From positions 1 to 62,152 of IMG/VR virus record IMGVR_UViG_3300035684_000004: 62,152 nt of DNA; one strand, 5' to 3'. Source of the DNA: a virus. Each line of letters starts with the position of its first letter. Position 1 is the first letter of the stretch. Shown here in pieces: positions 10,766 to 62,152 of this stretch. A program made the translations under genes and the position numbers. The notes below the pieces were generated by a model. It did no database searches, was not told where the DNA came from, and was given only the letters and a program-made list of their open reading frames with translations.

Positions 10766-10779
10766 GTGTCAGCCGCTCC

Positions 10780-12271: not shown

Positions 12272-12507
12272 GTGGCCTCCTCCGTTGTGACGGGGGCGCC
12301 GTCCGGGCGTTATAGCCCCGGGCCTACCGGGGGAACCGTCCGTGGGCGCCTACCCTGGCGGTAGGCCCGTGCTGGTGATGCGCGGCGCTGACGGTGTGAC
12401 CGACCAGGAGGCCGATCGACACCGCGGGGGGTGGGCCCGGGTCCGGTCAGGACCGGGGGACGACCGGGACGACGACGACCGGCCCGGGCCCAGCTCCTCC
12501 CCGAGCG

Positions 12508-17093: not shown

Positions 17094-18326
17094 TCATGAC
17101 GTGGTGTGCATCCACATCTTCGGGGCCACACCGTTCGCGTCCCGGCTCGCGTTCTGCCCGTCAGCGGTGAACTGGGCCGGCAGCGACGAGAACCCGCTGG
17201 TCGTACCGGTCCCGTCCACGGCCACCATCCCGTACGTCGCCGTGTTCGCTCCGGGGGTCGCCGCAGAGGTGCTCGTCGACCACCCCGCGGACGCCGTCGG
17301 CGCGTTCAGCGCCCGCCACTGCACGTTGCTGCCCGTGGACAACCCTGCCAACCAGTACCACCCCGGCGTGAGCGCGAGCGGCGCCGTCAGCGACGCGGTG
17401 CGCATCGCCGACCCGGCGCCCGACAGGAACGGCGTCACCTCGCGCAGCAGCGCTCCAGGCAGGCCCGCCGCGTTCGTGTCGTAGATCCCTAGGTGGATCA
17501 GCCCGCTCGTCTTCCCCAGCGTGATGTCCATCGCCAGCTTGTCCACGGGCACCGTGCTCGGCACCAGGATCGGCGACGCGTACGCCGTAGCCAGCGTCGG
17601 CGCGACGTCCGCGCCGCCAGTGTTCAGGTTCGTGTACCAGCGCCCCGTCGTCCACGGGATCCCCCCGACGCCGCTCCCACCGGACCCGGACGGGCCCGTC
17701 GCGCCGCGGATGTCGACGGCGTCCGCGAGGACCGCGGTCAGCCCAGCGGCACCCACGTACAGGCCGGTCGCCGGCTTCGTCCCGGACCCCCCAACCCAGT
17801 CGAGGACCTGCAGCACCCGCCGCGACCCATCCGACACGACAGCGAGCGCCGGGGTCCACCCGTTCACGCCGTCCGCGCCCGCAGGGCCCGCCGCTCCCGC
17901 CGGGCCGGTCGGACCTGCGGCGCCGACCTCGCCAGCCGGACCGCTCGGACCAGCCGGGCCGGTGGGCCCCGCGGGGCCTGTGGCGCCGGCTGGTCCGGTG
18001 TCTCCGGTGTCGCCCTTCGGACCGGGCGGTCCGGCCGATCCCGTCGCTCCTGCGGGCCCCTGGGCGCCGGCGGCGCCGGTGTCTCCCTTCGGACCCTGGG
18101 CGCCTGCCGGGCCAGCAGGACCCGACGCACCAGCTGGACCCGTGGCACCCGCCGGGCCCGCTGGTCCCTGCGGTCCCGTCTGGCCCGCCGGACCCGGCGG
18201 GCCAGGGACGCCGCCCTCGAGCACCACCGCCGCCGGCGGGCCGCTCGGCGCCGCCACCGCGCCGCCCGTCGGGGGCACCGTGACGACGGCCGCGCCCGGC
18301 GCCGGGACGACGACCGGGTCAGCCAC
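17094..18326 (-). CDS. Collagen-like (Gly-X-Y repeat) fibre protein
   Basis: 410 aa. About 100 residues of uninterrupted GPAG/GPQG/GDTG triplets, followed by a globular C-terminal domain. Confidence 0.85.
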
Positions 18327-31287: not shown

Positions 31288-31854
31288 CTACTGGATCCGG
31301 CGTCCGATCTCGGTCTGCAGGCCCGCGAGGTGCTCCCGGATCTGCTCGTCCGACATCGCGCCCAGGTCGACGTCGTCCGCGGCGCCGCCGTCCACGTGCT
31401 CCACCCGCTCCGTGGACTCCCCGACCACCATCCGCTGCACCTTGATGCCTGCCTCGATGTACGCCAGCAGATCCCGCGCGTTCAGCTTGGACGGCTCGAG
31501 GTCCCGGAGGCGCTGCACGGCCTTCGCGACCAGCAGGTTCGCGACCGACAGGTGCTGCTCGGCCAGCTCGTACCGGCGGTCCCGCATCCGGGCCTCGTGG
31601 AGGCGGACCTGCTCGGCGTCCCACGCCTGCGACCGGCGGACCCACTGCCACTTCGCGGACAGCTGCATCAGGTACTGCTCGCTGACCTGACGCTCTCCCG
31701 CAACCTTCCTGAGCGTGCGTGCGCGGCCCATCCCGCGGTAGTGGTCGAAGTGGCCGTACGCCGCCGGGGGCTCGTCGGGCCAGCGGTCCCACTGCTCGAG
31801 GGTGGTGCCGTCGGGGTCGAGGCCGGCGAGCTCGTCGGTCGGTGTCGTGCTCAT
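31288..31854 (-). CDS. terS: Terminase small subunit
   Basis: 188 aa from ATG 31854. HTH-like RTLRKVAGERQVSEQYLMQLSAKW followed by a coiled coil. Upstream of TerL. Confidence 0.7.
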   Translation of the reverse strand: MSTTPTDELAGLDPDGTTLEQWDRWPDEPPAAYGHFDHYRGMGRARTLRKVAGERQVSEQYLMQLSAKWQWVRRSQAWDAEQVRLHEARMRDRRYELAEQHLSVANLLVAKAVQRLRDLEPSKLNARDLLAYIEAGIKVQRMVVGESTERVEHVDGGAADDVDLGAMSDEQIREHLAGLQTEIGRRIQ

Positions 31855-32108
31855 CGCTGGTCCTCGGGGATCAGGTCGAGGACCAGCAGCGGGTCGCTGA
31901 GGGGTCCGGTGTTCGCGCCCCACAGGTTGGCCTTGAGCTCGCTGATGCGGACGGCGAGCATCAGCCGGTGGTAGGCCATGCTGCCTTCGTCGCCGCCCAC
32001 TGCGAGTTCCCAGGCGACCTGGTGGCTCCGGGCGGCCTGGGTCAGGTAGCGGCGTTGCATGGCCTGCCGTGCATGCGGCGGGACGAATCGAGCCAGCAGG
32101 GTGCTCAC
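31851..32108 (-). CDS. Hypothetical protein (85 aa)
   Basis: GTG 32108 overlaps the upstream stop (GTGA). Confidence 0.55.
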   Translation of the reverse strand: MSTLLARFVPPHARQAMQRRYLTQAARSHQVAWELAVGGDEGSMAYHRLMLAVRISELKANLWGANTGPLSDPLLVLDLIPEDQR

Positions 32109-36449: not shown

Positions 36450-37676
36450 CTACCGACCCGAGGTGACGAACGCGGCGCGCTGCTGGCGGATCGCGTCGCC
36501 GGCCAGGTCGCTGATCGCTCCGTGCTTGACCGTGTCGAGGACGCGCAGCGCTTCGCGGTCGCCGGTGTCGCCGTCGAGCGCGCGGAGCATCTGCCGCTCG
36601 AGCCGGGTCGTGCCGCGAGCGGTCTGCACGTGCGTCGACCACGTGTTGAACGCCTGCACGACCCCCCACGCGGTCCCCGACCACGGCGCGACGCGCTGGT
36701 CACGCCTCCAGAGCTGGTGCAGCTCGTCCTGCTTCCCGAGCGCCATCGTCCGGGATCGGCCCTCCAACGTGGCGCCCTTGTCGTCGACGAGGGGGGCGAC
36801 GAGGTTCACGAAGGCCTCGTACTCGTGGCCCGTCACCGGCTGGCGGGTGAGGAGGTCGAGCTCGATCTGCCAGGCGTCGGCCTCCCGCTCGATCATGAGG
36901 CCGAGCGCCTGCCGGGCCTTCGTGATCTGTGCGTCGTTCAGCTGGCTGCCGGACGTGTGCCGCATCCGCCACACCGGGACGTCCTCGCCGAGCGCGCGGC
37001 GGTGGCTGTTGTCGCAGCACACGTTCGTGGCGTTCTCCCGCGCGGACGTCGCGTACGACTGGTCGTGGCTCGTGGAGATCAGCGCGTGCGGGCGGATCGT
37101 CACCCCGGACTGGTGCTCGAGCGCGTCGGTCTCGACCTGCACCCACCCGACGCGGCCGCCCTTGAGCGTGCCCGCCGAGCTGATGTACAGCGTGTCCTGG
37201 ATGATCGAGGACAGGCCGTCCAGCAGGATCTCCCCGTACTCGTGCACACGGTGCCCGGACTTCACCACGTGCAGCACCTCGCCGGTGTCCGAGCGACGCA
37301 GGCTTTTCCAGCCGGGCACGCCCTTGAAGCTGAGGGCCTCGCGCCGGTCCGGTCGGCCCTCCTCCTCGAACACCACGTACTCGTCGACGTCGGCCAGCTC
37401 GCGCTCCACGACCGACCAGTCGAAGCAGCGCCGGCGCACGACCTCCACCGGGATGCCGTGCGCGTAGAACGGGGCCTCCCCGAACTCGGGTCGCCACGCG
37501 CCCGCCCACCACGGGAACCCGTACCGGTCGGTCATCCCGACGACCACGTTCCGGGCCAGCGTGCTCGCGCCCTCCCGACTGTACTCGGCCGGGTCCGCGA
37601 TGAGCTGCGCCGCGACCCCCGCCGCGATCTGCTCCCGGGTCGGGACTACGGGCTCCGTGCTGATCTGCAGTGCCAT
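36450..37676 (-). CDS. DUF932-like (phage/plasmid-like protein TIGR03299 type)
   Basis: 408 aa from ATG 37676 (CAGCGGAGGAG upstream). AGTLKGGRVGWVQV...LISTSHDQSYATSA...NVCCDNS...WRMRHTSGS fits the DUF932 pattern. Confidence 0.72.
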   Translation of the reverse strand: MALQISTEPVVPTREQIAAGVAAQLIADPAEYSREGASTLARNVVVGMTDRYGFPWWAGAWRPEFGEAPFYAHGIPVEVVRRRCFDWSVVERELADVDEYVVFEEEGRPDRREALSFKGVPGWKSLRRSDTGEVLHVVKSGHRVHEYGEILLDGLSSIIQDTLYISSAGTLKGGRVGWVQVETDALEHQSGVTIRPHALISTSHDQSYATSARENATNVCCDNSHRRALGEDVPVWRMRHTSGSQLNDAQITKARQALGLMIEREADAWQIELDLLTRQPVTGHEYEAFVNLVAPLVDDKGATLEGRSRTMALGKQDELHQLWRRDQRVAPWSGTAWGVVQAFNTWSTHVQTARGTTRLERQMLRALDGDTGDREALRVLDTVKHGAISDLAGDAIRQQRAAFVTSGR

Positions 37677-37698
37677 GCTCGCTCCTCCGCTGAGCTGT

Positions 37699-37718
37699 CC
37701 CGCACCGGCCGGTGCGGG
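37699..37718 (-). terminator. Perfect 20-nt palindrome CCCGCACCGGCCGGTGCGGG
   Basis: Read directly. Lies between tRNA-like element 1 and the next RBS. Confidence 0.5.
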
Positions 37719-37722
37719 ATCG

Positions 37723-37779
37723 TAGGCCGCCGGGACTCGAACCCGGGTGCTGCTGACGCCCAGCGCGCCGCGCGGCCCT
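37723..37779 (-). ncRNA. tRNA-like element 1: acceptor-like stem closing a canonical T-arm, no D or anticodon arm
   Basis: Minus strand reads AGGGCCG-25 nt-CCGGG UUCGAGU CCCGG-CGGCCUA. The closing stem has 5 Watson-Crick pairs plus one G-U pair. Starts 7 nt after the stop of 37786..38088. Confidence 0.4.
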
Positions 37780-37785
37780 GGCCGA

Positions 37786-38088
37786 TCAGGAGTCGAGCTG
37801 CTGCCAGCCGCGCGGCGCACGCTGCGGGTCGGTGTCCCCGAGCTCGTCGGCCACTTCCGGCGCGACGTAGAGCAGGTTCACGCCGTGGTGGGTCAGCAGG
37901 TGCAGCGACACCGTCCGGTTGAACGTGACGAGACGGTGGCTGATCGCCCGACCGCTGATGCGCAGTGCGTCTTCGAGGGTCCAGTTGTTCGGACCGCGGG
38001 TGCCGATCCCGCGGCCTTGATTCGCCTTGTCGGTGGCGGTCAGGATGCGCGCCGCCTCGTCCGGGGTGATGTCGCGCTTGGTGCTCAC
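37786..38088 (-). CDS. Hypothetical protein (100 aa)
   Basis: GTG 38088 with CAGCGGAGG upstream. Confidence 0.65.
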   Translation of the reverse strand: MSTKRDITPDEAARILTATDKANQGRGIGTRGPNNWTLEDALRISGRAISHRLVTFNRTVSLHLLTHHGVNLLYVAPEVADELGDTDPQRAPRGWQQLDS

Positions 38089-39005: not shown

Positions 39006-39052
39006 GTCCGCCTCCGCTGCGGTCGTGGTGGGTGCTGCTTGATCTACTTCAA

Positions 39053-39081
39053 ACACTAGTAGACGTACTAGTGGCGTGCCA
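39053..39081 (-). promoter_or_regulatory. Promoter P6: -35 TGGCAC, 17-nt spacer, -10 TAGTGT
   Basis: Minus-strand reading cTGGCACgccactagtacgtctacTAGTGT. Confidence 0.5.
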
Positions 39082-40128: not shown

Positions 40129-40207
40129 CGTGACCTCCGCTGTCACTAGATGGTGGGTGTTGCTGACATTCATCAATCTATCTGCATTCGCATTCTCGTG
40201 TCATGAT

Positions 40208-40243
40208 TTCGGCCCGGGAATTGCAGAGAATTCCCGGGCCGAA
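40208..40243 (-). terminator. Perfect 15-bp hairpin closing the FtsK-like operon
   Basis: TTCGGCCCGGGAATT-gcagag-AATTCCCGGGCCGAA read directly. Confidence 0.7.
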
Positions 40244-40262
40244 CGGTGGATTTCGCGTTGGG

Positions 40263-41128: not shown

Positions 41129-41934
41129 GCCGTCCCCGCTTCCCGGACGAGGTGCGGGCGCCGCGCCTCGGCGAGCCGGTCGGCGCCGGCCTTCCGCGAC
41201 CCGAGGCCGAACAGGTCCTGGACGCCGACACCCGTGAAGCCGTGCCCGGCCGCGAGCTCCTCCCGCAACCACGCGACGTGGTCGTCGAACGACGTCCCCC
41301 ACGGCGCGCCGTCCCGCCACCCGCCACCGGCGGGAAGTGCCGGGTCCACTGGCGGCGGGGGTGGCGGCGTGGACTGGCGGGCCGCCACCTCCACCGCCTT
41401 CGCCTCGGCGGCCGCCACCCGAGCCGCCAGCTCCTCCAACTGCGCCGCCGCTCGCGCCGCCGCCTTCTTGGCGTCCGTCTCCGCCACGTACCGCCCCAGC
41501 TTCGCCTCCGCCAGCTCGGCGGCCGTGGCGGCGAGGTCGTCGCGGTACTGCAGGCTCGCCCGCCACCGCGACACGATCCGCCACTCCACCACGATCACGA
41601 CCAGGCCGACGCCGAGCGCCTGCCACCGCGGGGACGGCTCGTACACCGACAGCGTGACCGACGCCGCGAGCAGCGCGACGGCGCCCAGTTCGTCGGCGAG
41701 GTGCGCGCGCGGGTCGGTCCACGTCCACAGGACGTACGGCGTCAGGACCAGCGGCACCGCCCACGCCAGGACGCCGAACCCGGCGTGCTGGCCGGCGTGC
41801 AGCTCAAAGCGGCCGACGAGCACCCCGACGGCGAGCAGGGAGACGGTGAACAGTGCCGCCCGGCCCGCCGTCACCAGCTTCTGCGTCCGCGTCCTCGGCG
41901 GCTGGCCAGCGCCGGTCGTCTGCGTCGTGCTCAT
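41125..41934 (-). CDS. Multi-pass membrane protein with coiled-coil C-terminal half
   Basis: 269 aa from ATG 41934 (GGAGGA upstream). About four hydrophobic helices, then an Ala/Glu-rich coil and a PPPPPP linker. Confidence 0.7.
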   Translation of the reverse strand: MSTTQTTGAGQPPRTRTQKLVTAGRAALFTVSLLAVGVLVGRFELHAGQHAGFGVLAWAVPLVLTPYVLWTWTDPRAHLADELGAVALLAASVTLSVYEPSPRWQALGVGLVVIVVEWRIVSRWRASLQYRDDLAATAAELAEAKLGRYVAETDAKKAAARAAAQLEELAARVAAAEAKAVEVAARQSTPPPPPPVDPALPAGGGWRDGAPWGTSFDDHVAWLREELAAGHGFTGVGVQDLFGLGSRKAGADRLAEARRPHLVREAGTA

Positions 41935-42427
41935 CGTCCTCGTCCTCCGTTGCGTCGATCGGGGCTGTCGACCCGGTGCCAGCCTGGCCCGACAGGTCTT
42001 CGGTGGGGTGCTCCTCACGGCGGGGCGCCGGCGGCGGGAGCGGCTCGTCGTCGTCCTCGAACAGGAACGCGTCGAGCTGGTCGTTGCGGCGGCCGCGCAC
42101 CACCGCCACCCCGGCGGCCGCCACGAGGGCGAGGCCCGCCACGGCGAGCACCGCCAGCCACGGGACGCCGCCACCCTGCTCGGTGGCCGGAGCCGCCACG
42201 GGACCGGTGGCGGCCGGTGGCGGGGCGCCGGTGTCCGCTGCCACCGCGACCGCCACCGCGACCACCCCGGCCGCCACCAGCCAGCGCAGCACCGGCCAGG
42301 CGTGCACGAGGTACGGGTGGCGGCGGCCCAGCTCGCCGGCGGCCGCCATCCGGGTGATGCCGTTGACCCTCCGAGTCGCCAGGAGCAGCGCGAGCAGCAC
42401 CAGCGCGACGACGATGACCCAGCGCAT
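41804..42427 (-). CDS. Membrane protein (three hydrophobic segments, acidic tail)
   Basis: 207 aa. ATG 42427 begins MRWVIVVALVLLALLLA. The last ~40 codons overlap the next gene, so the 3' end is uncertain. Confidence 0.6.
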   Translation of the reverse strand: MRWVIVVALVLLALLLATRRVNGITRMAAAGELGRRHPYLVHAWPVLRWLVAAGVVAVAVAVAADTGAPPPAATGPVAAPATEQGGGVPWLAVLAVAGLALVAAAGVAVVRGRRNDQLDAFLFEDDDEPLPPPAPRREEHPTEDLSGQAGTGSTAPIDATEDEDDEHDADDRRWPAAEDADAEAGDGGPGGTVHRLPARRRGARRPL

Positions 42428-42469: not shown

Positions 42470-43009
42470 CTACTGCGCGGTGAACGCGCCGCCGTGCTTC
42501 TGCCGGCGCTTCGCCGACAGGATCGTCTGGTTCACCTCGGCGCGGACCTTCGCCGCGCTCGCGGCCCGCTTCGCGACTGTCGCCTCCGCAGCGGCCAGCT
42601 TCACGTGCGCCCGGCGGAGCCGGAACGACGCGAGCGCCTTCTGGCTCGTGGTGAGCTGGTCCGCCCGCTTGATCGACCGGCGGAGCAGCGCCTCGGCCTC
42701 GAGGATCGCCGCCCGGCCCGCGAGGGCGTGCTTCGCGATCCGCACGAGGTACGCCCGGTGCGCGGCGGGGTTCCCGATCCCGGCGTAGGCCTGCGCGGGG
42801 TGCGCGCGCGCGTTCCCGGTCGAGCTCTCCCCGATCGCGGTGAACGTGCCCGTGGACTGCCCGGTCCCGACGGGCGGCGTGCCCCACGCGGCCTCAGCGG
42901 CCGGCATCACGTCGGCTGCAGGCATCGGAAGGGTGGGCCGCGGCGAGCGAGGGGCGCGCGGCGGACGCGGCGTGCGGGGTGGGGTGGTCGCTGGCTGGCT
43001 CACGGTCAC
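42470..43009 (-). CDS. Hypothetical protein (Pro-rich N-terminus, helical basic C-terminus)
   Basis: 179 aa. First ORF downstream of the repeat array. Confidence 0.6.
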   Translation of the reverse strand: MTVSQPATTPPRTPRPPRAPRSPRPTLPMPAADVMPAAEAAWGTPPVGTGQSTGTFTAIGESSTGNARAHPAQAYAGIGNPAAHRAYLVRIAKHALAGRAAILEAEALLRRSIKRADQLTTSQKALASFRLRRAHVKLAAAEATVAKRAASAAKVRAEVNQTILSAKRRQKHGGAFTAQ

Positions 43010-43018
43010 TCTCCGTAC

Positions 43019-43171
43019 TTGTCAGGTGGTCTTGTCAGGTGCGATGTCAGGTCCCGTTACGCCGGACAACGAGCGGTTGTCAGGTGCGATGTCAGGCCGC
43101 TTGTCAGGTGCCTTGTCCGGTCCGACGGCTTAGGGAGAGCGCCGACAACCGCCGCCGCCTCTTGTCCGTCC
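43019..43171. repeat. Array of 8 direct copies of TTGTCAGGTG-type 10-mers, plus an inverted copy
   Basis: Copies start at 43019, 43032, 43044, 43077, 43089, 43101, 43113 and 43162. An inverted TTGTCCGG lies at 43062..43069. Phasing is 12-13 bp. The 20-mer TTGTCAGGTGCGATGTCAGG occurs twice. Confidence 0.92.
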
Positions 43172-43180
43172 GGGCACACG

Positions 43181-45700
43181 TCACGCGGTCAGCGCCTCCA
43201 CGTCACGCAGCGCAGCGTCGTCGCGCGCCTCGTCGAGCTCGTCGCCGTCCTCGTCGGCGGGGTCGTAGTCGTCCGGGATGACGAGCGGCTCGTCGAGGAC
43301 GTGCTCGCTGATCGCCCACTCGCCGCGGGCGAGCTGCCGCGCGGTCGCTGGCCGGCCCGGGCGGGTCTTCGTGTGCGCCTCGAGCCGCGGGTACAGCGCC
43401 GGGCGGACGTCCTCGCCGGGGAAGTCGAGCCACAGCGCGACGAGCGTCTCCGTGCTGACCCGCACCCACCGGGTCCCGTCGGGGCCGGCCTGCACCTCGC
43501 CGGGCGGCACGCGCTCGCCGTCCGAGAGCTTGACGTGCTGGGCCGGGTCCGTTTCGGTGAACAGCCGGCGCACCATCGCCTGGAAGTTCGCGGCGCGCTG
43601 CTGCGGGGACGGCCGCGGGCCGGACGCCGGCAGGGACCAGTCGACGGCCGGGTCGTCGTCGCCGTCCTGCGGGCCGTCGACCTGCGCGACGAACCGCTCG
43701 ACGGGGATCCGCGGGTCGGGCGTCTCGTCGGGGTCCGGGCCGAGCTCGTGGGTCACCTCGGCGTCGATCTCGTCGTCCAGCAGGTCGCTCTCGAGCGCGA
43801 CCTGCTGGCGCATGTGCTCGCTCATCGTGTCGTCGTCCTCCTCCAGCTCGGCGAGCGCCAGGTCAGGCGCCGCCTCGGTCTCTTCGTCGGGGTGCACGGG
43901 CTCCTCCTGCTGCGCCGGCGGCCCGGCCGGGGTCGGCGGTGTCGGGGTCGGCGGGGTTGGCTTCGGGGCCTGCTCGATCCACTTCCTGACGGCCGGGTCG
44001 CGCAGCTGCGGCACCTTGCCGTACTTCGACGACAGCCACGTCCCGACGGTGACGACGTCGCGGCGGGCGTACGACGCGCGGCGCGTCGCGGCGCCCGCGA
44101 ACACCTCGGCGGTGGCCTGGTCGAGCTCGTGCCACTCCGGGTGCTTGACCATCCACTCGGCGACCGTGGCGGCGAGCAGCAGCCGGTCGGGGCGCTCGGT
44201 GCGGCGCTTCATCGGCCACCGGTTCTTCTTCTCACCCGCGAGCTCGGCGTAGTGCAGGCCCGGCTGCTCCATCGGGTCGAAGGTCCACGGCTCGGCGCCG
44301 GCGTCGAGGGTGTCCTCGGACAGCGCCATCCGGGCGTCCTCAGGCTTGTCGCACGCGAACGCCATCGACTCAGGAACGAGGTTCCGGAAGTCGGTCGACA
44401 CGTTCTCCTCCGACGGCCGCTGCAGCTCGGTGACGACCTTGAAGCCGGCGGAGCGCCACACCTCGACGCCCCGGGCCCACTCCTCCTCGAACGGGCCCAT
44501 CAGCGGCGCGGCCTCCGCGAACCAAGCCAGGACGAACGGGATCCCGAACTCGGTCCAGCACCGCGGCGTCCACCGGTCCTCGCCGGTGAGGTCGGTGATG
44601 AGCTGCGTCCGCACCGGCACCGCGGCGGCCAGCGCACGGAGCTGCGCCTCGGCTCCCTCCGGCGTGGACTCGAACCAGTGCAGGAACGGCCGGACGAACG
44701 GCACCCACTGCCCGGCCTTGCGGGTGTCGGACGCGATGACAACGATGCCCTGCCGGGCGACGAGCTCGCCGAGCAGGTTCACCTGGAACGCGGTCTTCGC
44801 CGCGCCGCTCTTCCCGGACGAGATCAGCGACGGGGAGCCGACGAAGTCGTCGGTCGGGGTCATCGACCAGCGCGACTCCTTGCGGTCCGCGGTCCACCCG
44901 ACCCGGATCGGCTCCCACACGCCGGCGCCCGCCCGGACCGGGCCCTTCCAGTCGGGCACGTTGTCGAGGTACGCGCTGCGCGAGATGACGAGCTTGGTGC
45001 GGTGCGCGAGCGTCCGGCCGGCCTCGAGCACGGGGTCGATCCGCACGGACCCGGACGGCAGCTTCGCCTTGGCCTCGATCCGCTGCTTCGCGCGGACCAG
45101 GTCCTCGCGGGTGTTCTCGGTGTGCTCGACGAGCACGTGCCGCTCGCCGTTCTTGTCCTCGGCCTTCACCGGGCGGGTGCTGTCGGCGAGGCCGACGGCG
45201 CGCTGCCAGGCGCCGTCCTCGTCGCCGTGGTGGTCCGTGCCGTCGCCGCGGTGCACGGGGTACTGCACGACGACGTGCCACAGCGCGATCAGGCACCCGG
45301 TCGGCAACACGAGCACGATGTGCCAGAACGGCACCGCTCCGATCAGGGTGGTGACCGACCAGACGGCAGCGAGCCACCCGATGGACAGGGCGAGCCGGCG
45401 CCGGTTCCACGGGTTCCGGGACTGCGAGGACCTCCACAGCGCCACGGTGAGCGCGGCGCCGCACGCGCCGAGCATGAACGTCAGGTGCGGGACGTAGTCG
45501 AAGCGGACGGCGAGCGCGTGCCAGCCGAGGCCGAGCAGCGGGACGACGAGCACGAACACCACGAACGGCAGGACCGCGGTGTCCCAGCCGCCCTTAACGA
45601 CGTCGAACAGGCCGCCCTGCCCGCGCCGCCACTGCTGCGGCGCGGGCTGCGCGGTCGGCTTCGGCTTCGCGGTCGTGCGCGGCCGGGTCCTGCTCGCCAC
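43181..45700 (-). CDS. Membrane-anchored FtsK/SpoIIIE/TraB-like ATPase candidate
   Basis: 839 aa. About four N-terminal TM helices. P-loop-like LISSGKSGAAKT, and a Walker-B-like FVLAWFAEAA. The C-terminus is acidic with an RPATARQLARGEW helix. GGAGG precedes GTG 45700. Confidence 0.6.
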   Translation of the reverse strand: MASRTRPRTTAKPKPTAQPAPQQWRRGQGGLFDVVKGGWDTAVLPFVVFVLVVPLLGLGWHALAVRFDYVPHLTFMLGACGAALTVALWRSSQSRNPWNRRRLALSIGWLAAVWSVTTLIGAVPFWHIVLVLPTGCLIALWHVVVQYPVHRGDGTDHHGDEDGAWQRAVGLADSTRPVKAEDKNGERHVLVEHTENTREDLVRAKQRIEAKAKLPSGSVRIDPVLEAGRTLAHRTKLVISRSAYLDNVPDWKGPVRAGAGVWEPIRVGWTADRKESRWSMTPTDDFVGSPSLISSGKSGAAKTAFQVNLLGELVARQGIVVIASDTRKAGQWVPFVRPFLHWFESTPEGAEAQLRALAAAVPVRTQLITDLTGEDRWTPRCWTEFGIPFVLAWFAEAAPLMGPFEEEWARGVEVWRSAGFKVVTELQRPSEENVSTDFRNLVPESMAFACDKPEDARMALSEDTLDAGAEPWTFDPMEQPGLHYAELAGEKKNRWPMKRRTERPDRLLLAATVAEWMVKHPEWHELDQATAEVFAGAATRRASYARRDVVTVGTWLSSKYGKVPQLRDPAVRKWIEQAPKPTPPTPTPPTPAGPPAQQEEPVHPDEETEAAPDLALAELEEDDDTMSEHMRQQVALESDLLDDEIDAEVTHELGPDPDETPDPRIPVERFVAQVDGPQDGDDDPAVDWSLPASGPRPSPQQRAANFQAMVRRLFTETDPAQHVKLSDGERVPPGEVQAGPDGTRWVRVSTETLVALWLDFPGEDVRPALYPRLEAHTKTRPGRPATARQLARGEWAISEHVLDEPLVIPDDYDPADEDGDELDEARDDAALRDVEALTA

Positions 45701-45872
45701 CTTGCCTCCGTTCAGCGTGCCAGCGCTGTCCTAGTCGGTGGGACGCACGTCTATGTCACGTCGTGCCGTCCCGCGGCACAAGAGTGGGGCATGATCTGCC
45801 GTAGCGCAACCACTTGTCAGACACGCGGGCGCGTTTCCGCAGGTCACGAGCGGGCGGGTGCTGACAAACGAC

Positions 45873-45906
45873 AGTGCCCCCCACCCCGGGTGGGGTGGGG
45901 GGCACT
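45873..45906 (-). terminator. Perfect 15-bp hairpin terminator
   Basis: AGTGCCCCCCACCCC-gggt-GGGGTGGGGGGCACT, followed on the minus strand by GTCGTTTG. Confidence 0.8.
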
Positions 45907-45989
45907 GGATCGCGCGGGGTGATGGCCGCCACCCGGCGATCACCGCCGCGCTGGCAAGGCGAGGACGAACTAGCCAGCGTGGCGGAGTC

Positions 45990-47389: not shown

Positions 47390-48292
47390 TCAGGCGCCGC
47401 CCAGGTAGTCCGCACACGCCAGCTCGACCGCCCGCCACAGCGGCATCTCCCGGTCGCCGGCGTCCCGCCGGACCTTCTTCGCCGCCCGGACGATGACCGC
47501 AGCGGCGTCCGGCGGCACCGCCCGCGTCCCGAGCATGGACTCCACCGGCACGTGCTCCTTCCGGCGCGGCTCGCCGTCGCCGTCGAGCCAGCCGGCCTGC
47601 GTCGCTTCGAGGTTCGCCTCGAACACGTCGAGGATCAGGCCCAGCGCCGTGGCGACGTTCCCGACCTTCCACGCGGCGTGCGCCGTCTCGAGCGCGTCCA
47701 GCGTCGGGTCGTACTGCGCGAGCGCGGCGACCCACCGGCCCGCGACCGTGCCGGCGAGCTTCCGGGCGTCGTCCAAGGCCTGCTGCGCCCGCTCGAGCTC
47801 GGCGGGCAGGAACACCAGCGTCACCGTCTGGAAGTCCAGGTTCGCCTCGGACAGGCCCTGCACGTCAACCTTCGTCAGCAGGTCGAGGGTCTTGTCGTCG
47901 AGGCCCGCGTACGCCCGCCAGTCGACGTCGTCGAGCTGCTCGTACAGCGCCTTGAGCGTGGCCGGGTCGTCCTCGCCCTCGATCGCGTTGTGCGACAGCT
48001 GCCGGGCGATGATCTGCTGCTTGGACTGCTCATCGCGGACGACGAGCACGTGGTCCTCATGGTCGCGGCCGAGCGCCGTCATCGCGGCCTCGATCCGGTG
48101 GTGCCCGGACACGATGTCCCCGGGCACGGCCGGGTCAGGCTCGTAGATCAGGGGGAGGGACGTGAGCCGGCCGTCGGCGCGGATGTTCGCGACCAGCCGG
48201 TCGAACGTCTCCTTCCGCATAAACCGCGCGTTGACCGCCTGCGGGTTGAAGTCGGCGAGGCGCCGCTTCTGGATCTCGACGTTCAGGGTCAT
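47390..48292 (-). CDS. ParB-like nuclease (ParBc/Srx) domain protein
   Basis: 300 aa from ATG 48292 (ATGA overlap). N-terminal LPLIYEPDPAVPGDIVSGHHRIEAA motif. Confidence 0.72.
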   Translation of the reverse strand: MTLNVEIQKRRLADFNPQAVNARFMRKETFDRLVANIRADGRLTSLPLIYEPDPAVPGDIVSGHHRIEAAMTALGRDHEDHVLVVRDEQSKQQIIARQLSHNAIEGEDDPATLKALYEQLDDVDWRAYAGLDDKTLDLLTKVDVQGLSEANLDFQTVTLVFLPAELERAQQALDDARKLAGTVAGRWVAALAQYDPTLDALETAHAAWKVGNVATALGLILDVFEANLEATQAGWLDGDGEPRRKEHVPVESMLGTRAVPPDAAAVIVRAAKKVRRDAGDREMPLWRAVELACADYLGGA

Positions 48293-49680
48293 GCCGGCCA
48301 CCTCTGGTCGCTCGAGTGCTTGTCCATCCACGTGGCGAGCGCGCCGGCGAGGTCCCACGCCCCCAGCGGGCCCTCGTAGTTCAGCATGTAGCGGTGCACG
48401 CCGTCCTTGGCCGTGCCGCCCTCGCCGCCGTCCTCCCGCTTCGCGAGCTTCATGCCGGGGATCCCGCGGCCGTACTTCGCGGACTGCGGGTTGTCGCTGA
48501 ACGCGGTCGTCAGCACGGTCCGGAGCCGGCGGGACAGGGGCCGCTGCAGGAGATGCCGGGCCTCGTCGCTCATGGCGGCCATCACGATCAGCTTCGAGAG
48601 GCGGCGGTACTGCGTCCACGCGACGGGGAAGTCGGACAGCAGGTACGCCTGCGACGGCTCGTACTTCGGGCCGCTGTACGCGAACGCGCCGATCAGCTTC
48701 CCGCCCGCGGAGACGCCGACGGCGAGCAGCGGGCTGCCCGGCAGGATGCTCTTGTTCATGAACTGCGAGCGGAGCGCGGAGAACTCCGGGCCGGTGAGCA
48801 CGTGCAGGCGCAGCGGGCCCTCGAGGTCCTCCCACGGGCCGAGCTTCGGCATCAGCACCGGCGCGGTCTGCTGCCGGGGCTGCACGATCCGGGTGGTCAT
48901 GCCCGCGCTGTACACGTAGATCGAGACGCCCCGGTTCGTCGTCTGCACCACACCCCGGAGGTGCTCGCGCAGCTCCGGGCGCTCAACGTGCAGGCCGAGG
49001 ATCCACGCGGGCCGCTCGACGACCAGGCGGACGAGCTCGTCCTTGCCGTGCTCGTCGAGCGGCGGGTACGTCGGCGCCGGCCAGTCGAAGAACGTGTCGA
49101 TGCCCGCGAACTGCTGCTCGTAGTCGCCGCGGGCCTTCCCGTCGCTGGTGCGCTCGCCGCCGTAGAACGGCGGGAACATCACGACCGGCGCGGCTGGTGG
49201 GGCGACGTCGGCGACGAACTCGCGAACGTCCATCGGGGAGAACGACGCGAGCTGCAGGGTGAGGCCCTCGAGCTTCGCGCGGGTCTTCCCGTGCATGGTG
49301 GGCCACTGCTCGCGGGTCGCGGCGAGCATCCGCTCGTAGTAGCGGCCGGTCTTGCCGATCAGGCCGAGGAACCGGGTGCCGAGCATCAGGGTCGCCATCG
49401 TCCCGGCGCGGCCGTCGAGGTACGGCGCGAGCCAGTCGAGCCGCTCGGCGTGCTCTGGCTTGAGCGTGAACGGGAGCTCGGCGCCGGTGAGGTACCAGCC
49501 GAGCGCGCAGGAGTAGCCGGTGACGTCGTTGCTGTGGAGCCGACACCCGCGGTCGGCGAGCACCCGTTCCAGGGTCATGTTGCCCGAGCACCCGACGTAC
49601 ACGTCGTCGTCGGGGCCCCACTCCGCGGACCGCTCCCAGACCAGCGAGCGCATGTCGCCGGGTATCGAACCGTGGAACAC
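48289..49680 (-). CDS. D12-class adenine-methyltransferase-like protein with degenerate motif IV (FPPF) and an unknown C-terminal domain
   Basis: 463 aa from GTG 49680 (CAGCGGAGGAG 7 nt upstream). YVGCSGNMT resembles motif I. VVMFPPFYGG sits where DPPY is expected. Confidence 0.5.
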   Translation of the reverse strand: MFHGSIPGDMRSLVWERSAEWGPDDDVYVGCSGNMTLERVLADRGCRLHSNDVTGYSCALGWYLTGAELPFTLKPEHAERLDWLAPYLDGRAGTMATLMLGTRFLGLIGKTGRYYERMLAATREQWPTMHGKTRAKLEGLTLQLASFSPMDVREFVADVAPPAAPVVMFPPFYGGERTSDGKARGDYEQQFAGIDTFFDWPAPTYPPLDEHGKDELVRLVVERPAWILGLHVERPELREHLRGVVQTTNRGVSIYVYSAGMTTRIVQPRQQTAPVLMPKLGPWEDLEGPLRLHVLTGPEFSALRSQFMNKSILPGSPLLAVGVSAGGKLIGAFAYSGPKYEPSQAYLLSDFPVAWTQYRRLSKLIVMAAMSDEARHLLQRPLSRRLRTVLTTAFSDNPQSAKYGRGIPGMKLAKREDGGEGGTAKDGVHRYMLNYEGPLGAWDLAGALATWMDKHSSDQRWPA

Positions 49681-49795
49681 GGGGGCCTCCTCCGCTGAGA
49701 CGGCGTCGCCCCCGGGGGCAGTCGGCCAGGAACCTTGCGGAGGAACCGACATGACCACACCCGGGGGCGACAGGGGCCGGTCCCGGGGGACCGAG

Positions 49796-49867
49796 AGCGG
49801 GAGGCAGGGATCGAACCTGCCCCTCCCCCCTGGAAGGGGGGCGCGCCACCTTCGGCGCTTCTCCCGC
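49796..49867 (-). tRNA. tRNA-Gly (anticodon UCC)
   Basis: Hand-folded cloverleaf: GCGGGAG AA GCGC CGAAGGTG GCGC G CCCCC CTTCCAG GGGGG AGGG GCAGG TTCGATC CCTGC CTCCCGC T. All stems are Watson-Crick, U33 and A37 are present, and no CCA is encoded. Confidence 0.9.
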
Positions 49868-49870
49868 GTG

Positions 49871-49904
49871 GTCGCCCACCCGCACGGGGGTTCGGGTGGG
49901 CGAC
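49871..49904 (-). terminator. 12-bp hairpin immediately 5' of the tRNA
   Basis: GTCGCCCACCCG / CGGGTGGGCGAC arms read directly. Confidence 0.5.
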
Positions 49905-49923
49905 TGAACGGCACAGTACCGGA

Positions 49924-50082: not shown

Positions 50083-50390
50083 CGCGTTGCTCCCGTCGGT
50101 GCGTCGGCCACGGTCGCGAGGTACTTCCGGGCGGCGTCCATCGCCCGGGCGTGCTCGTCGGCGCTGCTCTCCCGGAGCCTGAGCTGGCGGTGGGCGTCCT
50201 CGTCGTCGTGGTCGCCGTCGGCGTGACCCACCAGGAACGCGGCCGCCTCCTCCGTGTGCCCGCCGAGGTGCAGCACGTCCGCGAGCGCGTCGGCCTCGGT
50301 GCAGGTCATCGCGGTGCCGATCGCGGTGGCGGTCCAGGAGTCGCCCACGACGTCCGCGAGGTACGCGACGGCGCTGGTCAGGTCGCTCAC
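50079..50390 (-). CDS. Hypothetical acidic/His-rich protein (103 aa)
   Basis: GTG 50390 overlaps the ParB stop (GTGA). Confidence 0.6.
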   Translation of the reverse strand: MSDLTSAVAYLADVVGDSWTATAIGTAMTCTEADALADVLHLGGHTEEAAAFLVGHADGDHDDEDAHRQLRLRESSADEHARAMDAARKYLATVADAPTGATR

Positions 50391-52072
50391 GGCTTGGCCA
50401 GCTTCGCGGCGCGCTTCTCGACGTCGGACAGCTGGTAGCCCATGCGCTCGCTCAAGAACCGCAGGTACCGGGCGGTGTGGTCCGGCTTCCCGCGCCAGTC
50501 GTTCCGGTCGGTGGCCTGTTCGTACGCCGCGAGCACGAGCGTGAGAACCTCGACCAGGCCCGCCGGCTCGGTCTTCTTCCCGGCGGCCGTGACCCGCTTG
50601 AGCAGCTCGTCGCGGGCGTAGGTGACCTTCTTGACGCCGAGCAGGGTCAGGCCGTAGGTGTCGCCGAAGTGGTCGCGGAGCGCGAACCCGTCAGCGACCA
50701 GCGCCGCCATGAGCAGCTGGGAGGTGCCCTTGGGGACGGCCTTCATCTTCACCGCGGTCTTGAGCCACTCCCGGCGCAGCTCCTCCGCCGCCGTCCACGC
50801 CTTGTTCGACGCGATGACGTCGGCGCGCTCCGCCCGGGCCTGCTCTTTCGCGGCCGCCTCGTCGAGGGGCTGGCCGACGCCGCCCATCGTGGCGGCTGAC
50901 GCGCCGCCGCGGATCGTGTGCAGGTCGGGCTGCGTGCAGACGTACGCTCCGCCGGCGTACTTCACCCACTCGGACTGGCGGGGCTTCTCGGCGAGCTCGT
51001 CGCCCGGCAGGGCGACGTCCTCCACCGGACGCGGCGTCACGACGTCCTGGTCGATCTCGTAGTCGCCGTCCTCGTCGTCGTCGAGCGCGTCGTCGCCGGC
51101 CTCGAAGTCCACCTCGTCGTTGACCATCGCGAGCACGACCCGGTGGCCGGCCCCGTGCACGAGCTCGCGGGTGTCCAGCCACACGTCGCCGTTGAAGACG
51201 TCGACCTGCACGCCGTGACCGGGGCAGTCGGCGTGCTCCGCGCCGGTCATCGTCTTGTACGGGTCGTCGGGCTCCGACACGGCGAACGACCGGAGCGCCA
51301 CGCACGGCTCGTCGTCCGGGACGACGCGCAGCCCCAGCTCGAGCGCCTTCTCCAGACCCGCCTTGACCAGCCGGTCCTCGACCTCCTTGTTGCGGACCTC
51401 CTGGATCCGCTGCCGCAGCATCCACGAGCCGCCCTGCGCGAGCTCGATCAGCTCTGCCTGCTCAGGCTTGCCGTCGAACTCGGCCAGGGCGGCCGCGACG
51501 TCGAGGTACTGGCCCGGGTTCGGCTGCTCCATCAGGAACGCCTTCGCCGTCTGCGACCGGGCCACCGTGAGCCGCTGCGCGACCGTGTCCGGCCGCGTCT
51601 TCGTGGCGGCCGCGATCTCGTCCGCCGACATGCCGAACAGCGACAGCTGCTCGACGGCGTTCAGGCGGTCCAACTCGGTTAGCCCGGCGCGGGCGTCGTT
51701 CTCCGCGATCTGCGTGAGCAACCGCTCGATCTGCGCGGGGTCGTTGTGCTGCTCGTCGCCCGCGATGAGCACGGGCACGCGGTCCAGACCGGCCTCGATG
51801 GCGCCGACGGTGCGGCGGTGCCCGAACTTGACCCGCAGCTGGTCGTAGCTCTTTCCCTTGTCAGGAACGACGACCATGCCCGTTCGGACGGCGACGATGG
51901 GCTGCAGGACGCCGTGGAGCCGCAGGGACTCGACGAACTCGGCGTCGGCGGCGGTGGTCATGCGGACGTTGCGGTCGAGCAGCAGGGACCGCGGGTCGCG
52001 GTACACGAGCTCGAGGTCGTACGTCGGGGTCCCGGCCGGTGTCGTGGCCGGTGCATCGGTGGTGCTGGTCAA
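50387..52072 (-). CDS. ParB/Spo0J-family protein (N-terminal ParB domain + HTH, long C-terminal extension)
   Basis: 561 aa. LRVKFGHRRTVGAIEAGLDRVPVLI is followed by an HTH-like SADEIAAATKTRPDTVAQRL. TTG start at 52072, with GGAGGAG 6 nt upstream. Confidence 0.72.
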   Translation of the reverse strand: MTSTTDAPATTPAGTPTYDLELVYRDPRSLLLDRNVRMTTAADAEFVESLRLHGVLQPIVAVRTGMVVVPDKGKSYDQLRVKFGHRRTVGAIEAGLDRVPVLIAGDEQHNDPAQIERLLTQIAENDARAGLTELDRLNAVEQLSLFGMSADEIAAATKTRPDTVAQRLTVARSQTAKAFLMEQPNPGQYLDVAAALAEFDGKPEQAELIELAQGGSWMLRQRIQEVRNKEVEDRLVKAGLEKALELGLRVVPDDEPCVALRSFAVSEPDDPYKTMTGAEHADCPGHGVQVDVFNGDVWLDTRELVHGAGHRVVLAMVNDEVDFEAGDDALDDDEDGDYEIDQDVVTPRPVEDVALPGDELAEKPRQSEWVKYAGGAYVCTQPDLHTIRGGASAATMGGVGQPLDEAAAKEQARAERADVIASNKAWTAAEELRREWLKTAVKMKAVPKGTSQLLMAALVADGFALRDHFGDTYGLTLLGVKKVTYARDELLKRVTAAGKKTEPAGLVEVLTLVLAAYEQATDRNDWRGKPDHTARYLRFLSERMGYQLSDVEKRAAKLAKP

Positions 52073-56404: not shown

Positions 56405-56854
56405 TTACGACCAGGGTGTCTCGACGGTGCACGGCGCGAGGTCCGGCCGCGCGGTCCGGACGCCGGACACGAACAGCTCCCACCACACGCCGGCCGCGGG
56501 CCCCCACACGAGCAGCGTGGCGTCGGGGTCGGCGAGCAGCGCGTCGACCTCGGCGCCGTGCCGCACGAGCAGGAACAGGTCGTACGCCCACCCGTCGTAG
56601 CGGCCTTCGTGCTCGACGAGGCCGTGGCAGCCGGTCGTGCCGGACCCGCAGAGGACGACGGCGAGGCGGGGGTCCAGCGGACGGGACGTGCCTCCCGCGC
56701 CGCGGGGGAGGATGTGCTGCAGCGTCGGCCGGTCCCGAGTGCCGCACGCCAGGCAGGTGCGGCCGTCGCGCTCCATGACCTGCGCGTAGACCTCGGCGTC
56801 CGCGGCCGCGAGCTCGGCGCGCCGGTGCTGCTGAGGTGTCTTCGACGTCCGCAC
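56405..56854 (-). CDS. HNH endonuclease
   Basis: About 149 aa from GTG 56854. CLACG...LQHILPRGAGG...LCGSGTTGCHGLVE. Confidence 0.7.
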   Translation of the reverse strand: MRTSKTPQQHRRAELAAADAEVYAQVMERDGRTCLACGTRDRPTLQHILPRGAGGTSRPLDPRLAVVLCGSGTTGCHGLVEHEGRYDGWAYDLFLLVRHGAEVDALLADPDATLLVWGPAAGVWWELFVSGVRTARPDLAPCTVETPWS

Positions 56855-56873
56855 TGTGCCACCGTATGGCACA
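56855..56873. promoter_or_regulatory. Perfect dyad TGTGCC-N7-GGCACA abutting the HNH start codon
   Basis: Read directly: tgtgcc accgtat ggcaca. Confidence 0.6.
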
Positions 56874-57040
56874 CCACCACGGCGGGGGCCGGTAACGGGC
56901 CGCGCACGGTGTGCGATGGGGCCGGACGTGGTGCGGGACCCCGCTGATTCCTCCAGCGGGGTCCCGCTCGCGCAGTCTGCCACCGGGGCCGGGAACCGGC
57001 CAGCGTCAGCCGTGGCGGAGGGCTGACGCTGGCCGGTGCT

Positions 57041-60369: not shown

Positions 60370-61362
60370 TCAGGACTGCTCGTCGTCCGGACCGCCGGGC
60401 GCCTTCGCCGGCTTGGCAGCCGCCTCCAACGCCTGCAGCACCGACACCTGCTTGTGCTTGAAGTGCAACCCGATCCGCTCAATCACGTCGGGCAGCAGCA
60501 TCGGACCCGCGATCTGCAGCAGCGGCCCGGCCGGGCGGAGGTCGTCCACCGTGACGTGCTGCGGCGACAGGCCACGCGCACCTGTGAACAGGTTCAGCAG
60601 CGTCTCCCGGTCGTCCGCCGCGATCGCCTTGCTGAGCACCTCACGCCCCGCCGGCGTCAGCGGCTTCACGGCCCACGGGTCCTCGCCCTGCGCTGCCTGC
60701 CCGGCACGCTGCCGCTCGGCGCGGCCGGACGCCGGCACCTCGCGCCGCTCGTCGTCGTCCTGGCTCTGCCGGCTGAGCTCAGCCCGGGCCCGCTCGCTCT
60801 TCGACCACAGGTACGTGCCGACCCCGAGACGCATCGCGGCGTTCCGGATCGCGTCGCCGATCATCACCTTGACGTCGCGGGGCGCGCCGGTCTTCCCGTC
60901 GGCGTCGCCGAACCCGATCGCGGTGAACCCGGCCACGTGCAGCCGGATCCAGATCCCGCCGTTCTCGATCCGCGGCGGGGAGTGCTTCGCGAGCCAGTCG
61001 AGGATCACCGTCGGGTTGTCGGGCAGGCCCGTGTTGTTCAGGACGGCGGCCAGCGCGCGGTCGTCGATGTCCGGGTGCAGCGGCTCCCACGACCAGGTCG
61101 GGTCGACCTCGAGCAGCCGGGTCGTGACGCCGGCGTGCCCGACGTACGACAGGTGCGGCGCAGCGGCGCCCTGCAGGTGCCGGCCCCCGCACGTCGTGCA
61201 GTCGACCGGCTTCCCCTCCTTGGCCCACGGCTTCGGGAGGAGCTCGATCTCGTCCCGCCGGAACGGCTTGGTCAGCTTCTCGAACACCTGCCGCTGCTCG
61301 TCGGTCAGTCCCGACAGGTCGATGGCCTCGTACTCGAGGCCATCGGTGGGCGTGTCTGTCAA
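60370..61362 (-). CDS. Rad52/Sak-like single-strand annealing protein
   Basis: 330 aa from TTG 61362 (GGAGGAG 6 nt upstream). LSYVGHAGVTTRLLEVDP...GIWIRLHVAG...MIGDAIRNAAMRLGVGTYLW. Confidence 0.7.
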   Translation of the reverse strand: MTDTPTDGLEYEAIDLSGLTDEQRQVFEKLTKPFRRDEIELLPKPWAKEGKPVDCTTCGGRHLQGAAAPHLSYVGHAGVTTRLLEVDPTWSWEPLHPDIDDRALAAVLNNTGLPDNPTVILDWLAKHSPPRIENGGIWIRLHVAGFTAIGFGDADGKTGAPRDVKVMIGDAIRNAAMRLGVGTYLWSKSERARAELSRQSQDDDERREVPASGRAERQRAGQAAQGEDPWAVKPLTPAGREVLSKAIAADDRETLLNLFTGARGLSPQHVTVDDLRPAGPLLQIAGPMLLPDVIERIGLHFKHKQVSVLQALEAAAKPAKAPGGPDDEQS

Positions 61363-61536
61363 CGTGCTCTCCTCCGCTGAGAGTGGGTGGGGGTGGTACC
61401 AGTCCAATGGTAGTGGTACTAGTGGGCGTGGCGCCAGTGGTACGGCTAGTAGTGACCCGTGCGTGTCGCGCCCGCACCCACACGATCCGGACACCGGCCG
61501 CCGGTAGCGTCAGCCGCGCACACACCAGGAGGACTC

Positions 61537-62016: not shown

Positions 62017-62152
62017 TCAGTCCTCCTTCGGCTTCTCCTTCACCGCCGGGAGCGCGTCCGCCGCGACCCACCCGTCGGGCGCCGGGCAGTACCACGTGTT
62101 CGGGTGCGCGTGGTCCGTGCACCACCGCTCGTGCTCGACGACCGGCTCCTCC
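62017..62152 (-). CDS. 3' part of the junction-spanning 48-aa ORF (see 1..88)
   Basis: Stop codon TGA at 62019..62017. In frame with ATG 88 once the repeat is collapsed. Confidence 0.5.
   Translation of the reverse strand, partial: EEPVVEHERWCTDHAHPNTWYCPAPDGWVAADALPAVKEKPKED
62076..62152. repeat. Terminal direct repeat, right copy
   Basis: Identical to 1..77. Confidence 0.97.

Follow-up and report, generated by a model that had tools for sequence, protein, structure and literature searches.

A repeat array beside a TraB-type translocase gene in a tailed-phage genome is probably a clt-type recognition locus

What recognises a phased array of short repeats that fills the gap behind an FtsK-like gene in a tailed phage? 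The question is raised by the IMG/VR virus record IMGVR_UViG_3300035684_000004, which we analysed over its whole length of 62,152 nucleotides (positions 1 to 62,152, hereafter the window) and in which the array lies between the translocase gene, ending at 43181, and the next gene on the minus strand. The first-pass annotation, made from the letters alone, had set out four readings without ranking them: a recognition site for the translocase resembling a cis-acting locus of transfer or TraB recognition sequence (clt/TRS), the iterons of a replication origin, a centromere and an operator cluster. Our analysis indicates that the array is very probably a conserved cis-acting element tied to the translocase gene. 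With less assurance, and arguing from sequence and analogy, we consider it probable that this element is a clt-type recognition locus of the adjacent TraB-like translocase. We thus favour the first of the four readings, on the basis of the homology of the neighbouring gene to TraB and of an array that has the same place and two-cluster layout as the clt of plasmids pWTY27 and pJV1, with a unit related to that of pWTY27. Sites of the clt type are a known kind of element. What is new is the setting with a TraB-type pump in a complete tailed-phage genome, a combination not described in the literature searched.

Read on the coding (minus) strand, the array comprises eight direct and two inverted 9-bp units of the CCTGACAAG type within 152 bp and occupies the 177 bp from the stop codon of the translocase gene to the ribosome-binding site (RBS) of the next gene. 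It begins 12 nt past the stop codon with an inverted pair that is present in all relatives (43141–43169), composed of a direct unit ACGGACAAG (minus strand, 43169–43161) and an inverted unit GCCGACAAC (plus strand, 43141–43149), 11 nt apart. A non-repeat block, TCTCCCTAAG (43129–43138, minus strand), leads over to cluster A (43076–43120, minus strand), whose four direct units stand at an exact spacing of 12 bp: CCGGACAAG at 43120–43112, CCTGACAAG at 43108–43100, CCTGACATC at 43096–43088 and CCTGACAAC at 43084–43076. Facing the last of these over a 5-nt gap is a central inverted unit on the plus strand, CCGGACAAC (43062–43070). The promoter-distal cluster B (43018–43051, minus strand), whose position is kept in six lineages, adds three direct units, namely CCTGACATC at 43051–43043, CCTGACAAG at 43039–43031 and CCTGACAAG at 43026–43018. 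The array unit on this strand is a 12-bp repeat with the core CCTGACAAG / CCTGACATC, and unit starts are spaced by 12, 12, 12, then 33, then 12 and 13 bp.

The eight copies, the inverted TTGTCCGG at 43062–43069 and the duplicated 20-mer (43032 and 43077) that had been listed from the letters are all present where they had been placed, and the second inverted copy, the GCCGACAAC of the stop-proximal pair, had been overlooked. The location of the array between the FtsK-like gene and the next open reading frame likewise holds, but the start of that frame at 43009 most likely does not: because the N-terminus MSQPA... is kept in relatives, the gene probably starts at GTG 43003, with GGAG 7 nt upstream. 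With this start, the final unit of cluster B ends 3 nt ahead of the RBS, and the 3' end of the region reads, on the minus strand, cluster B, 3 nt, GGAG, 7 nt and GTG 43003.

As in a clt, the repeated word is concentrated at the locus. TGTCAGG occurs ten times in 62,152 bp, with six of the ten copies on one strand within 43020–43108 and four elsewhere. At the rate observed outside the array (four per 62 kb), the Poisson probability of at least six copies in 90 bp is about 1e-16. The exact 10-mer TTGTCAGGTG, which the first-pass annotation had proposed to search for elsewhere in the genome, has no copy outside the array, all four of its occurrences lying within it. Tandem- and direct-repeat scans of the whole window identified the array as its sole non-coding multi-copy short-repeat array. 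Elsewhere in the genome, the unit appears only as scattered single copies, mostly within coding sequence or at gene boundaries; copies in conserved non-coding positions are confined to the array and the promoter of the translocase gene. Three other explanations were dismissed. A genome-wide polarity like that of the FtsK orienting polar sequences (KOPS) was rejected, as the GACAAG strand skew (31 versus 0) is what codon usage (GAC-AAG) predicts with nearly all genes on one strand. An array of promoters was suggested by the resemblance of the units to a -35 hexamer and was rejected because they have no -10 partners, no promoter-like site being found within the array. A pac or cos site was dropped, the small-terminase gene (31288–31923) lying 11 kb from the array.

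Is the arrangement conserved? Megablast and tblastn against GenBank phages revealed no close relatives, and peptide-pattern scans of IMG/VR and GTDB genomes returned nothing; the relatives discussed here were drawn solely from a large protein collection and its contigs. An exhaustive profile search recovered 515 representative relatives, 121 of them at E ≤ 1e-30. The contigs of five relatives are syntenic with the window, with a ParB-like gene, a DAM-like/GNAT gene, small genes, the translocase gene, a gene of 150–180 aa and, further on, a DUF932 gene. Persistence of the array in relatives that keep the flanking genes, which had been left to be checked, was found in all six lineages with the translocase gene: in each, the 155–185-bp gap behind that gene shows the shared layout at the same position. 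Columns invariant in the six-way alignment comprise the ACAA cores, the TTGT of the central inverted unit, the CCCTA of the non-repeat block, and the RBS and start codon. Pooled over the six lineages, the unit reads (G/C)(A/G)(C/G)(C/T)G(G/A)ACAA(G/C). Spacing within clusters is 12–13 bp in all six, and the distance from cluster A to cluster B is 33–35 bp in five of them and 44 bp in lineage L004. The window array has one unit more per cluster than its relatives. A wider relative (P0015, lineage L019), encoded on a 45-kb contig together with an integrase and helix-turn-helix (HTH) regulators, has the same layout in its gap (12388–12544) built from a different unit, CCGACCAAG, with direct and inverted copies, a CCCCTAGG block and the last unit beside the RBS.

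The conserved region could in principle act as RNA. Folding of the six intergenic regions with RNAalifold gave -10.4 kcal/mol with a slightly unfavourable covariation term (+0.67), and a structured RNA was rejected for want of covariation support. A consensus fold without such support points instead to a protein-binding site at the DNA level. In lineage L011, a single compensatory change was seen in the central inverted pair, an anecdotal observation only.

What, then, is the protein encoded next to the array? The gene (43181–45700, minus strand) encodes an 839-aa TraB-type, membrane-anchored DNA translocase of the FtsK/SpoIIIE family, as judged from homology, motifs and structural models. Its N-terminus carries hydrophobic segments and its motor domain a variant Walker A motif (GxxGAAKT), a Walker B motif WxAE and a QRPS motif. 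Pfam has no match for the protein or its neighbours, and PHROGs returned for the same set only a family of unknown function and a weak FtsK match. A homology search yielded five metagenomic relatives at 45–58% identity, followed by Streptomyces proteins named 'plasmid transfer protein TraB'; these are the top named relatives, with an E-value of 1.7e-29 (6.9e-39 with the family profile). BLASTP against P0007, the TraB of an actinomycete integrative and conjugative element (AICE), gave an E-value of 8e-39 at 29% identity over residues 83–545, and P0007 is in turn 72% identical to pWTY27 TraB and 50% identical to the TraB of pJV1 (NC_001759.1). By tblastn, TraB was found in 52 actinomycete plasmids, including pWTY27 (NC_013667.2; E 3e-20).

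Structure prediction agrees with this assignment. The family profile matches the FtsK motor in the PDB, and an AlphaFold model of the motor (residues 235–560; predicted local distance difference test score, pLDDT, 77; predicted template modelling score, pTM, 0.80) matches the E. coli FtsK motor in Foldseek with an E-value of 1.3e-7 and a probability of 1.0. The model also matches EccC/EssC and the conjugation coupling protein TcpA (E-values of 1e-7 to 1e-5, FtsK included). By sequence, the adjacent gene is therefore homologous to TraB, and its modelled motor has the FtsK fold. The protein labelled 'FtsK-like' earlier, which has no Pfam match, is specifically a TraB-type relative. Its C-terminal ~115 residues align to the end of TraB, seven positions (P, W, W, L, A, G, W) being invariant in nine sequences, and the model of this domain (about residues 697–810; pLDDT 82) runs helix, two strands, two helices and β-hairpin, the order of a winged-helix-like domain.

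Streptomyces TraB binds the plasmid clt, whose direct 8-bp repeats are read by its C-terminal winged-helix domain (PMC4447253, PMC4170104), and specific binding by the translocase has been demonstrated for pWTY27 and pSVH1 (PMC3583192). Like a clt, the phage array consists of several direct words of 7–9 bp plus inverted repeats within about 50–200 bp, and it adjoins a gene for a TraB/FtsK-family translocase on the same replicon. We propose the following mechanism by analogy. The winged-helix-like C-terminal domains of a membrane-anchored FtsK-type hexamer would bind the 9-bp units CC[T/G]GACAAG. Ten such units, 12–13 bp apart in two clusters with inverted copies, would concentrate subunits on phage DNA and let the ring assemble around the double-stranded genome. 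The motor could then drive the genome through a membrane or hyphal cross-wall in the way that TraB of Streptomyces plasmids moves plasmid DNA, and the single units at the promoter of the translocase gene might serve autoregulation. That the translocase binds the array, that its motor is active and what transfer would achieve for the phage are points that we infer.

Several observations weigh against a translocase recognition site of this kind. In the six closest proteins, GxxGAAKT (residues 296–303) and WxAE (392–396) are invariant, so that the P-loop glycine before the lysine and the first acidic residue of Walker B are both replaced by alanine. The translocase thus departs from the canonical Walker A GxxGxGK[ST] and Walker B hhhh[DE]E, and its ATPase activity is possibly weakened. 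The six proteins keep the Walker lysine, the threonine, the second glutamate and QRPS; wider relatives and plasmid TraB have GxGK and EE, and the intermediate P0011 has GSAKT with EE. The altered motifs may, on sequence grounds, reflect a weakened or a re-tuned ATPase. Regarding the C-terminal domain, Foldseek against the PDB returned nothing significant and hhalign against an FtsK gamma sequence was negative. As neither confirmed the fold, we infer a winged-helix-like domain from the predicted topology and the TraB alignment only. Furthermore, a wider relative (P0021, lineage L020), whose 49.7-kb contig also encodes terminase, portal, protease and capsid, has palindromes (TCGCGAATATTCGCGA, GGCGAATATTCGCC) in its gap (12217–12353) and not such direct repeats. 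BLASTP against the traB-flanking genes of pJV1, pWTY27 and the AICE loci L013 and L016 detected no homologues of spd, traA or traR flanking the translocase gene. Another protein of this poorly annotated phage could also be the one that binds the array. Finally, the array abuts the RBS of the next gene and no terminator was found between the two, so it might also, or instead, act on expression.

This last point leads to the proposal that the array is an operator. A phage or host regulator other than the translocase would control the translocase promoter and block or tune read-through into the 177-aa gene and the membrane-protein genes that follow, a possibility that we rate as rather unlikely. 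The unit does occur at a promoter. The only sigma-70-like promoter predicted in 41.5–47.5 kb, CTGACA-18-GATCAT (45791–45820, minus strand), has as its -35 element an array unit copy, CTGACAAG (45820–45813), and an inverted copy on the minus strand, TTTGTCAG (45861–45868), has its 3' end 40 nt upstream of the start of the promoter copy. This arrangement is the same in L001, which carries TTTGTCCGG in place of the window's inverted copy, and in L011, and it is similar in L010. Since a strong intrinsic terminator with a 16-bp stem and a T-rich tail (45872–45907, minus strand) ends the upstream transcription unit, the translocase gene heads a unit of its own. In Streptomyces plasmids, moreover, traB is controlled by the repressors TraR, KorA and KorB, which bind nearby (PMC4447253, PMC4170104).

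However, the flanking genes yielded no match to HTH, GntR or other regulator families, the array contains no promoter of its own, and ten units over 150 bp go far beyond the needs of a simple operator. The homologous pWTY27 system has, in the same position and with the same layout and a related unit, a clt proven to bind the translocase (PMC3583192). The two roles are also compatible if the translocase autoregulates. Single units at the translocase promoter and a last unit abutting the RBS keep a regulatory role in play, and the operator cluster first suggested for 42470–43009 may accordingly survive as a secondary or dual function of what we regard as a clt-type locus.

The downstream gene (42470–43003, minus strand) encodes 177 aa with a proline-rich N-terminal region and a basic, helical C-terminal half. 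It is conserved in relatives, has no family match and probably shares a transcript with the translocase gene. The gene after it (41804–42427, minus strand), the second behind the array, specifies 207 aa with some three hydrophobic segments and a tail of acidic residues. Its position recalls that of plasmid spread (spd) genes, to which no sequence similarity was found; in relatives, a YdjM-like membrane hydrolase is encoded a few genes beyond. On the promoter side, the 5' leader of the translocase mRNA is conserved (window 45700–45790, minus strand; L001 9900–10000; L010 2225–2320; L011). It contains an inverted repeat GGACGnCAC ... GTGCGTCC, followed by TAGTGACTGG, and this repeat could be a regulatory hairpin or a second binding site.

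Could the array instead be an iteron-type replication origin, bound by an unrecognised phage initiator or by host DnaA? This idea arose because TTGTCC is the start of the actinobacterial DnaA box. Besides being the only non-coding repeat array of the genome, the locus lies in a phage whose non-structural half (31000–62152) showed, over the genes scanned, no recognisable initiator, DNA polymerase, helicase or primase, and likewise no integrase or repressor. The arrays of relatives each contain one or two units that agree with TTGTCCACA at eight of nine positions. In the window, by contrast, no unit comes within two mismatches of TTGTCCACA, the CACA half being replaced by GGTG. The array has no AT-rich unwinding element, its lowest GC content over 30 bp being 50%, the 12–13 bp spacing is not helical-repeat phasing, and no initiator gene is recognisable nearby. 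In homologous plasmids, the equivalent array is a clt that stands apart from the replication origin, pWTY27 having a distinct repA/repB locus with its own iterons (PMC3583192). We therefore consider an origin improbable.

The most AT-rich spots of the genome lie elsewhere, at 39038–39075 and 40130–40245 (minus strand; 37% GC over 30 bp), upstream of genes for 122-aa and 321-aa proteins. One contains a palindrome, ACTAGTACGTCTACTAGT, and the other follows a terminator-like hairpin (GGCCCGGGAATT...AATTCCCGGGCC). These spots look like strong promoters or regulatory sites, and they would be better candidates for an unwinding region than the array.

Some plasmid centromeres consist of two clusters of short direct repeats, parC of R1 being an example, and the array has also been considered as a parS-like centromere through which the 561-aa ParB-domain protein would partition an extrachromosomal prophage. 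A circularly assembled genome without a recognised integrase that encodes a ParB_N-like protein (50387–52072) is in line with this idea. Yet the match to ParB_N is weak, at 24.4 bits against the Pfam cut-off of 26.3, and 7.2 kb separate the gene from the array. Neither the genes scanned in the window nor the relatives' gene tables revealed a ParA or ParM partner, and no canonical 16-bp parS was found within three mismatches. Conserved non-coding copies of the unit flank the translocase gene on both sides and do not cluster near the ParB-like gene. The centromere is thus the least credible of the explanations considered, and its chances are very slim. With the origin and the centromere set aside and a regulatory function assigned a lesser or parallel role, recognition by the TraB-like translocase is the reading we carry forward.

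The genome itself supports the setting in which this reading is placed. The ends of the window (1–77 and 62076–62152) share an exact 77-nt direct repeat, an overlap that indicates a circularly closed assembly and a complete element of 62,075 bp. The phage genome is thus complete at this length, although it could also be terminally redundant or permuted. Its G+C content is 72.6%, and nearly all genes lie on the minus strand. With small and large terminase, portal, major head protein, tape measure and endolysin encoded in the left half, the window is a siphovirus-like tailed phage. Further genes encode a DUF932 protein (36450–37820), a DAM-like/GNAT protein (48289–49914), an HNH endonuclease (56405–56983) and a single-strand annealing protein (60370–61494). 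A long run of repeats of 9-bp and 18-bp period, of the CCGGGCCCG type, at 17867–18203 probably codes for collagen-like Gly-X-Y repeats of a tail or fibre protein whose gene the composition-based gene call missed.

FtsK-like genes are widely annotated in actinobacteriophages, and we know of no function established for any of them. A TraB-type translocase that occurs in six lineages together with what appears to be its own recognition locus therefore constitutes a defined candidate protein–DNA pair. If the pair is functional, the mechanism by which Streptomyces transfers double-stranded DNA would extend beyond plasmids and AICEs, and phages of mycelial bacteria could move their genomes between compartments without lysis. 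Consequences would follow for the spread and containment of infection in colonies of Streptomyces and for the passage of genes between phages and conjugative elements. If, on the other hand, the altered ATPase motifs mark an inactive motor, the pair might serve for DNA anchoring or for exclusion, roles that would be new as well. The most far-reaching version, for which we see only a modest chance, is that a lineage of tailed actinophages has, in the TraB-like pump and its clt, a functional conjugation module of the Streptomyces type. The genome of an infecting or resident phage could then be driven through hyphal cross-walls, or enter neighbouring hyphae, as double-stranded DNA and with no virions made. 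Such a virus would have a second, conjugation-like route of spread in a multicellular host. The phage might use the array for spread of its genome through the mycelium, for anchoring, for exclusion or for regulation.

How does the phage locus compare with known systems? In principle, it resembles the clt/TRS of pSVH1 (8-bp repeats GACCCGGA), the KOPS of FtsK and the SpoIIIE recognition sequences (SRS), where a hexameric pump of the FtsK family reads short repeated 8-bp words on the DNA it moves through a C-terminal winged-helix domain (PMC4170104, PMC4447253, PMC3583192). The unit sequences of all three differ from that of the phage array. Moreover, whereas KOPS and SRS are strand-skewed words dispersed over a chromosome, the phage has a single local array. 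Among phages, the FtsK-like genes of Mycobacterium phage Thibault and Streptomyces phage Geonosis likewise place an FtsK-family ATPase in a tailed actinophage (PMC11536984). These actinobacteriophage genes are generic, however; none is of the TraB type, none matches the phage protein at E ≤ 1e-5, and the literature searched contains no description of a cognate cis-acting repeat array for any of them.

The clt of pJV1 is closer. It is described as nine CCGCACA[C/G][C/G] repeats with two imperfect inverted repeats (PMC3583192; also PMC4447253, PMC9513070). In the pJV1 record, the traB stop is directly followed by four units; beyond a 43-bp gap come five more at 11–13 bp spacing, and then the next gene. 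Like the phage array, this clt has two clusters of direct 9-bp units, in its case 4 + 5 with 8–13 bp spacing and 43 bp between the clusters, and it occupies the gap from the traB stop to the next gene. The units share a CC..ACA pattern, and relative L004 has CCGCACAAC/CCGCACAAG units. The 3' half of the pJV1 unit is ACACC, whereas that of the phage unit is ACAAG, and no inverted unit of the same pattern was detected in pJV1. The carrier also differs, being a rolling-circle plasmid with a GntR-type regulator and traA beside traB.

Two AICE loci extend the comparison. Both show arrays of the CCT[G/A]ACACC type at the corresponding position. In L016, eight units form two clusters, and the 40 bp between them contain CCCCTAGG and an inverted copy; L013 has four units (CCTAACA three times and CCTCACACG). 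The phage unit CCTGACAAG shares CCTGACA with pWTY27 and L016, and the phage block TCCCTAAG parallels the CCCCTAGG of the same two loci. Similarly, TCTCCCTAAG resembles the CCCCTAGG found in the pWTY27 clt and in the AICE loci L013, L016 and L019.

The closest parallel is the clt of the Streptomyces sp. Y27 plasmid pWTY27, which takes in the final 16 bp of the tra gene and a further 159 bp. It contains four TGACACC repeats as well as inverted repeats, and the translocase leaves a footprint on it (PMC3583192). In the pWTY27 record, CCTGACACC, TGACACC, CTGACACC and TGACACC extend across the traB stop, followed by CCCAAACCCCTAGGCAGG, an inverted GGTGTCA, CCTGACAG and CCTGACGG. This amounts to four direct and about two degenerate units in clusters some 40 bp apart with an inverted copy in the gap. 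As in pJV1, the clt starts at the traB stop, and 7–19 bp separate the units in these two plasmids. The phage and pWTY27 share a homologous translocase, a site of about 175 bp that starts at the stop codon or just ahead of it, direct 7–9-bp units with a CCTGACA core (CCTGACACC versus the phage CCTGACAAG), an inverted copy in a gap of about 40 bp between clusters, and a CCCTA(G/A)G block. There are differences too. The carrier is a 14-kb theta-replicating conjugative plasmid in one case and a 62-kb tailed phage in the other, the 7–19 bp spacing of pWTY27 contrasts with the regular 12–13 bp of the phage, and the CCCTA block stands between the clusters in pWTY27 but before cluster A in the phage. 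Whereas a terminator-like hairpin precedes the next gene in pWTY27, the phage array reaches the RBS of its next gene, and pWTY27 TraB, unlike the phage protein, has a canonical GxGK P-loop. The pWTY27 record (NC_013667.2, L017) also carries a gene annotated in RefSeq as 'phage major capsid protein' (10642–12102) about 650 bp beyond the clt, another hint of gene exchange between phages and TraB-type elements. With the proven clt loci of homologous translocases, then, the phage array has in common where it lies, how long it is and its division into two clusters, and also the inverted copy between these clusters, a CCCTA(A/G)G block and the CCTGACA core of the unit.

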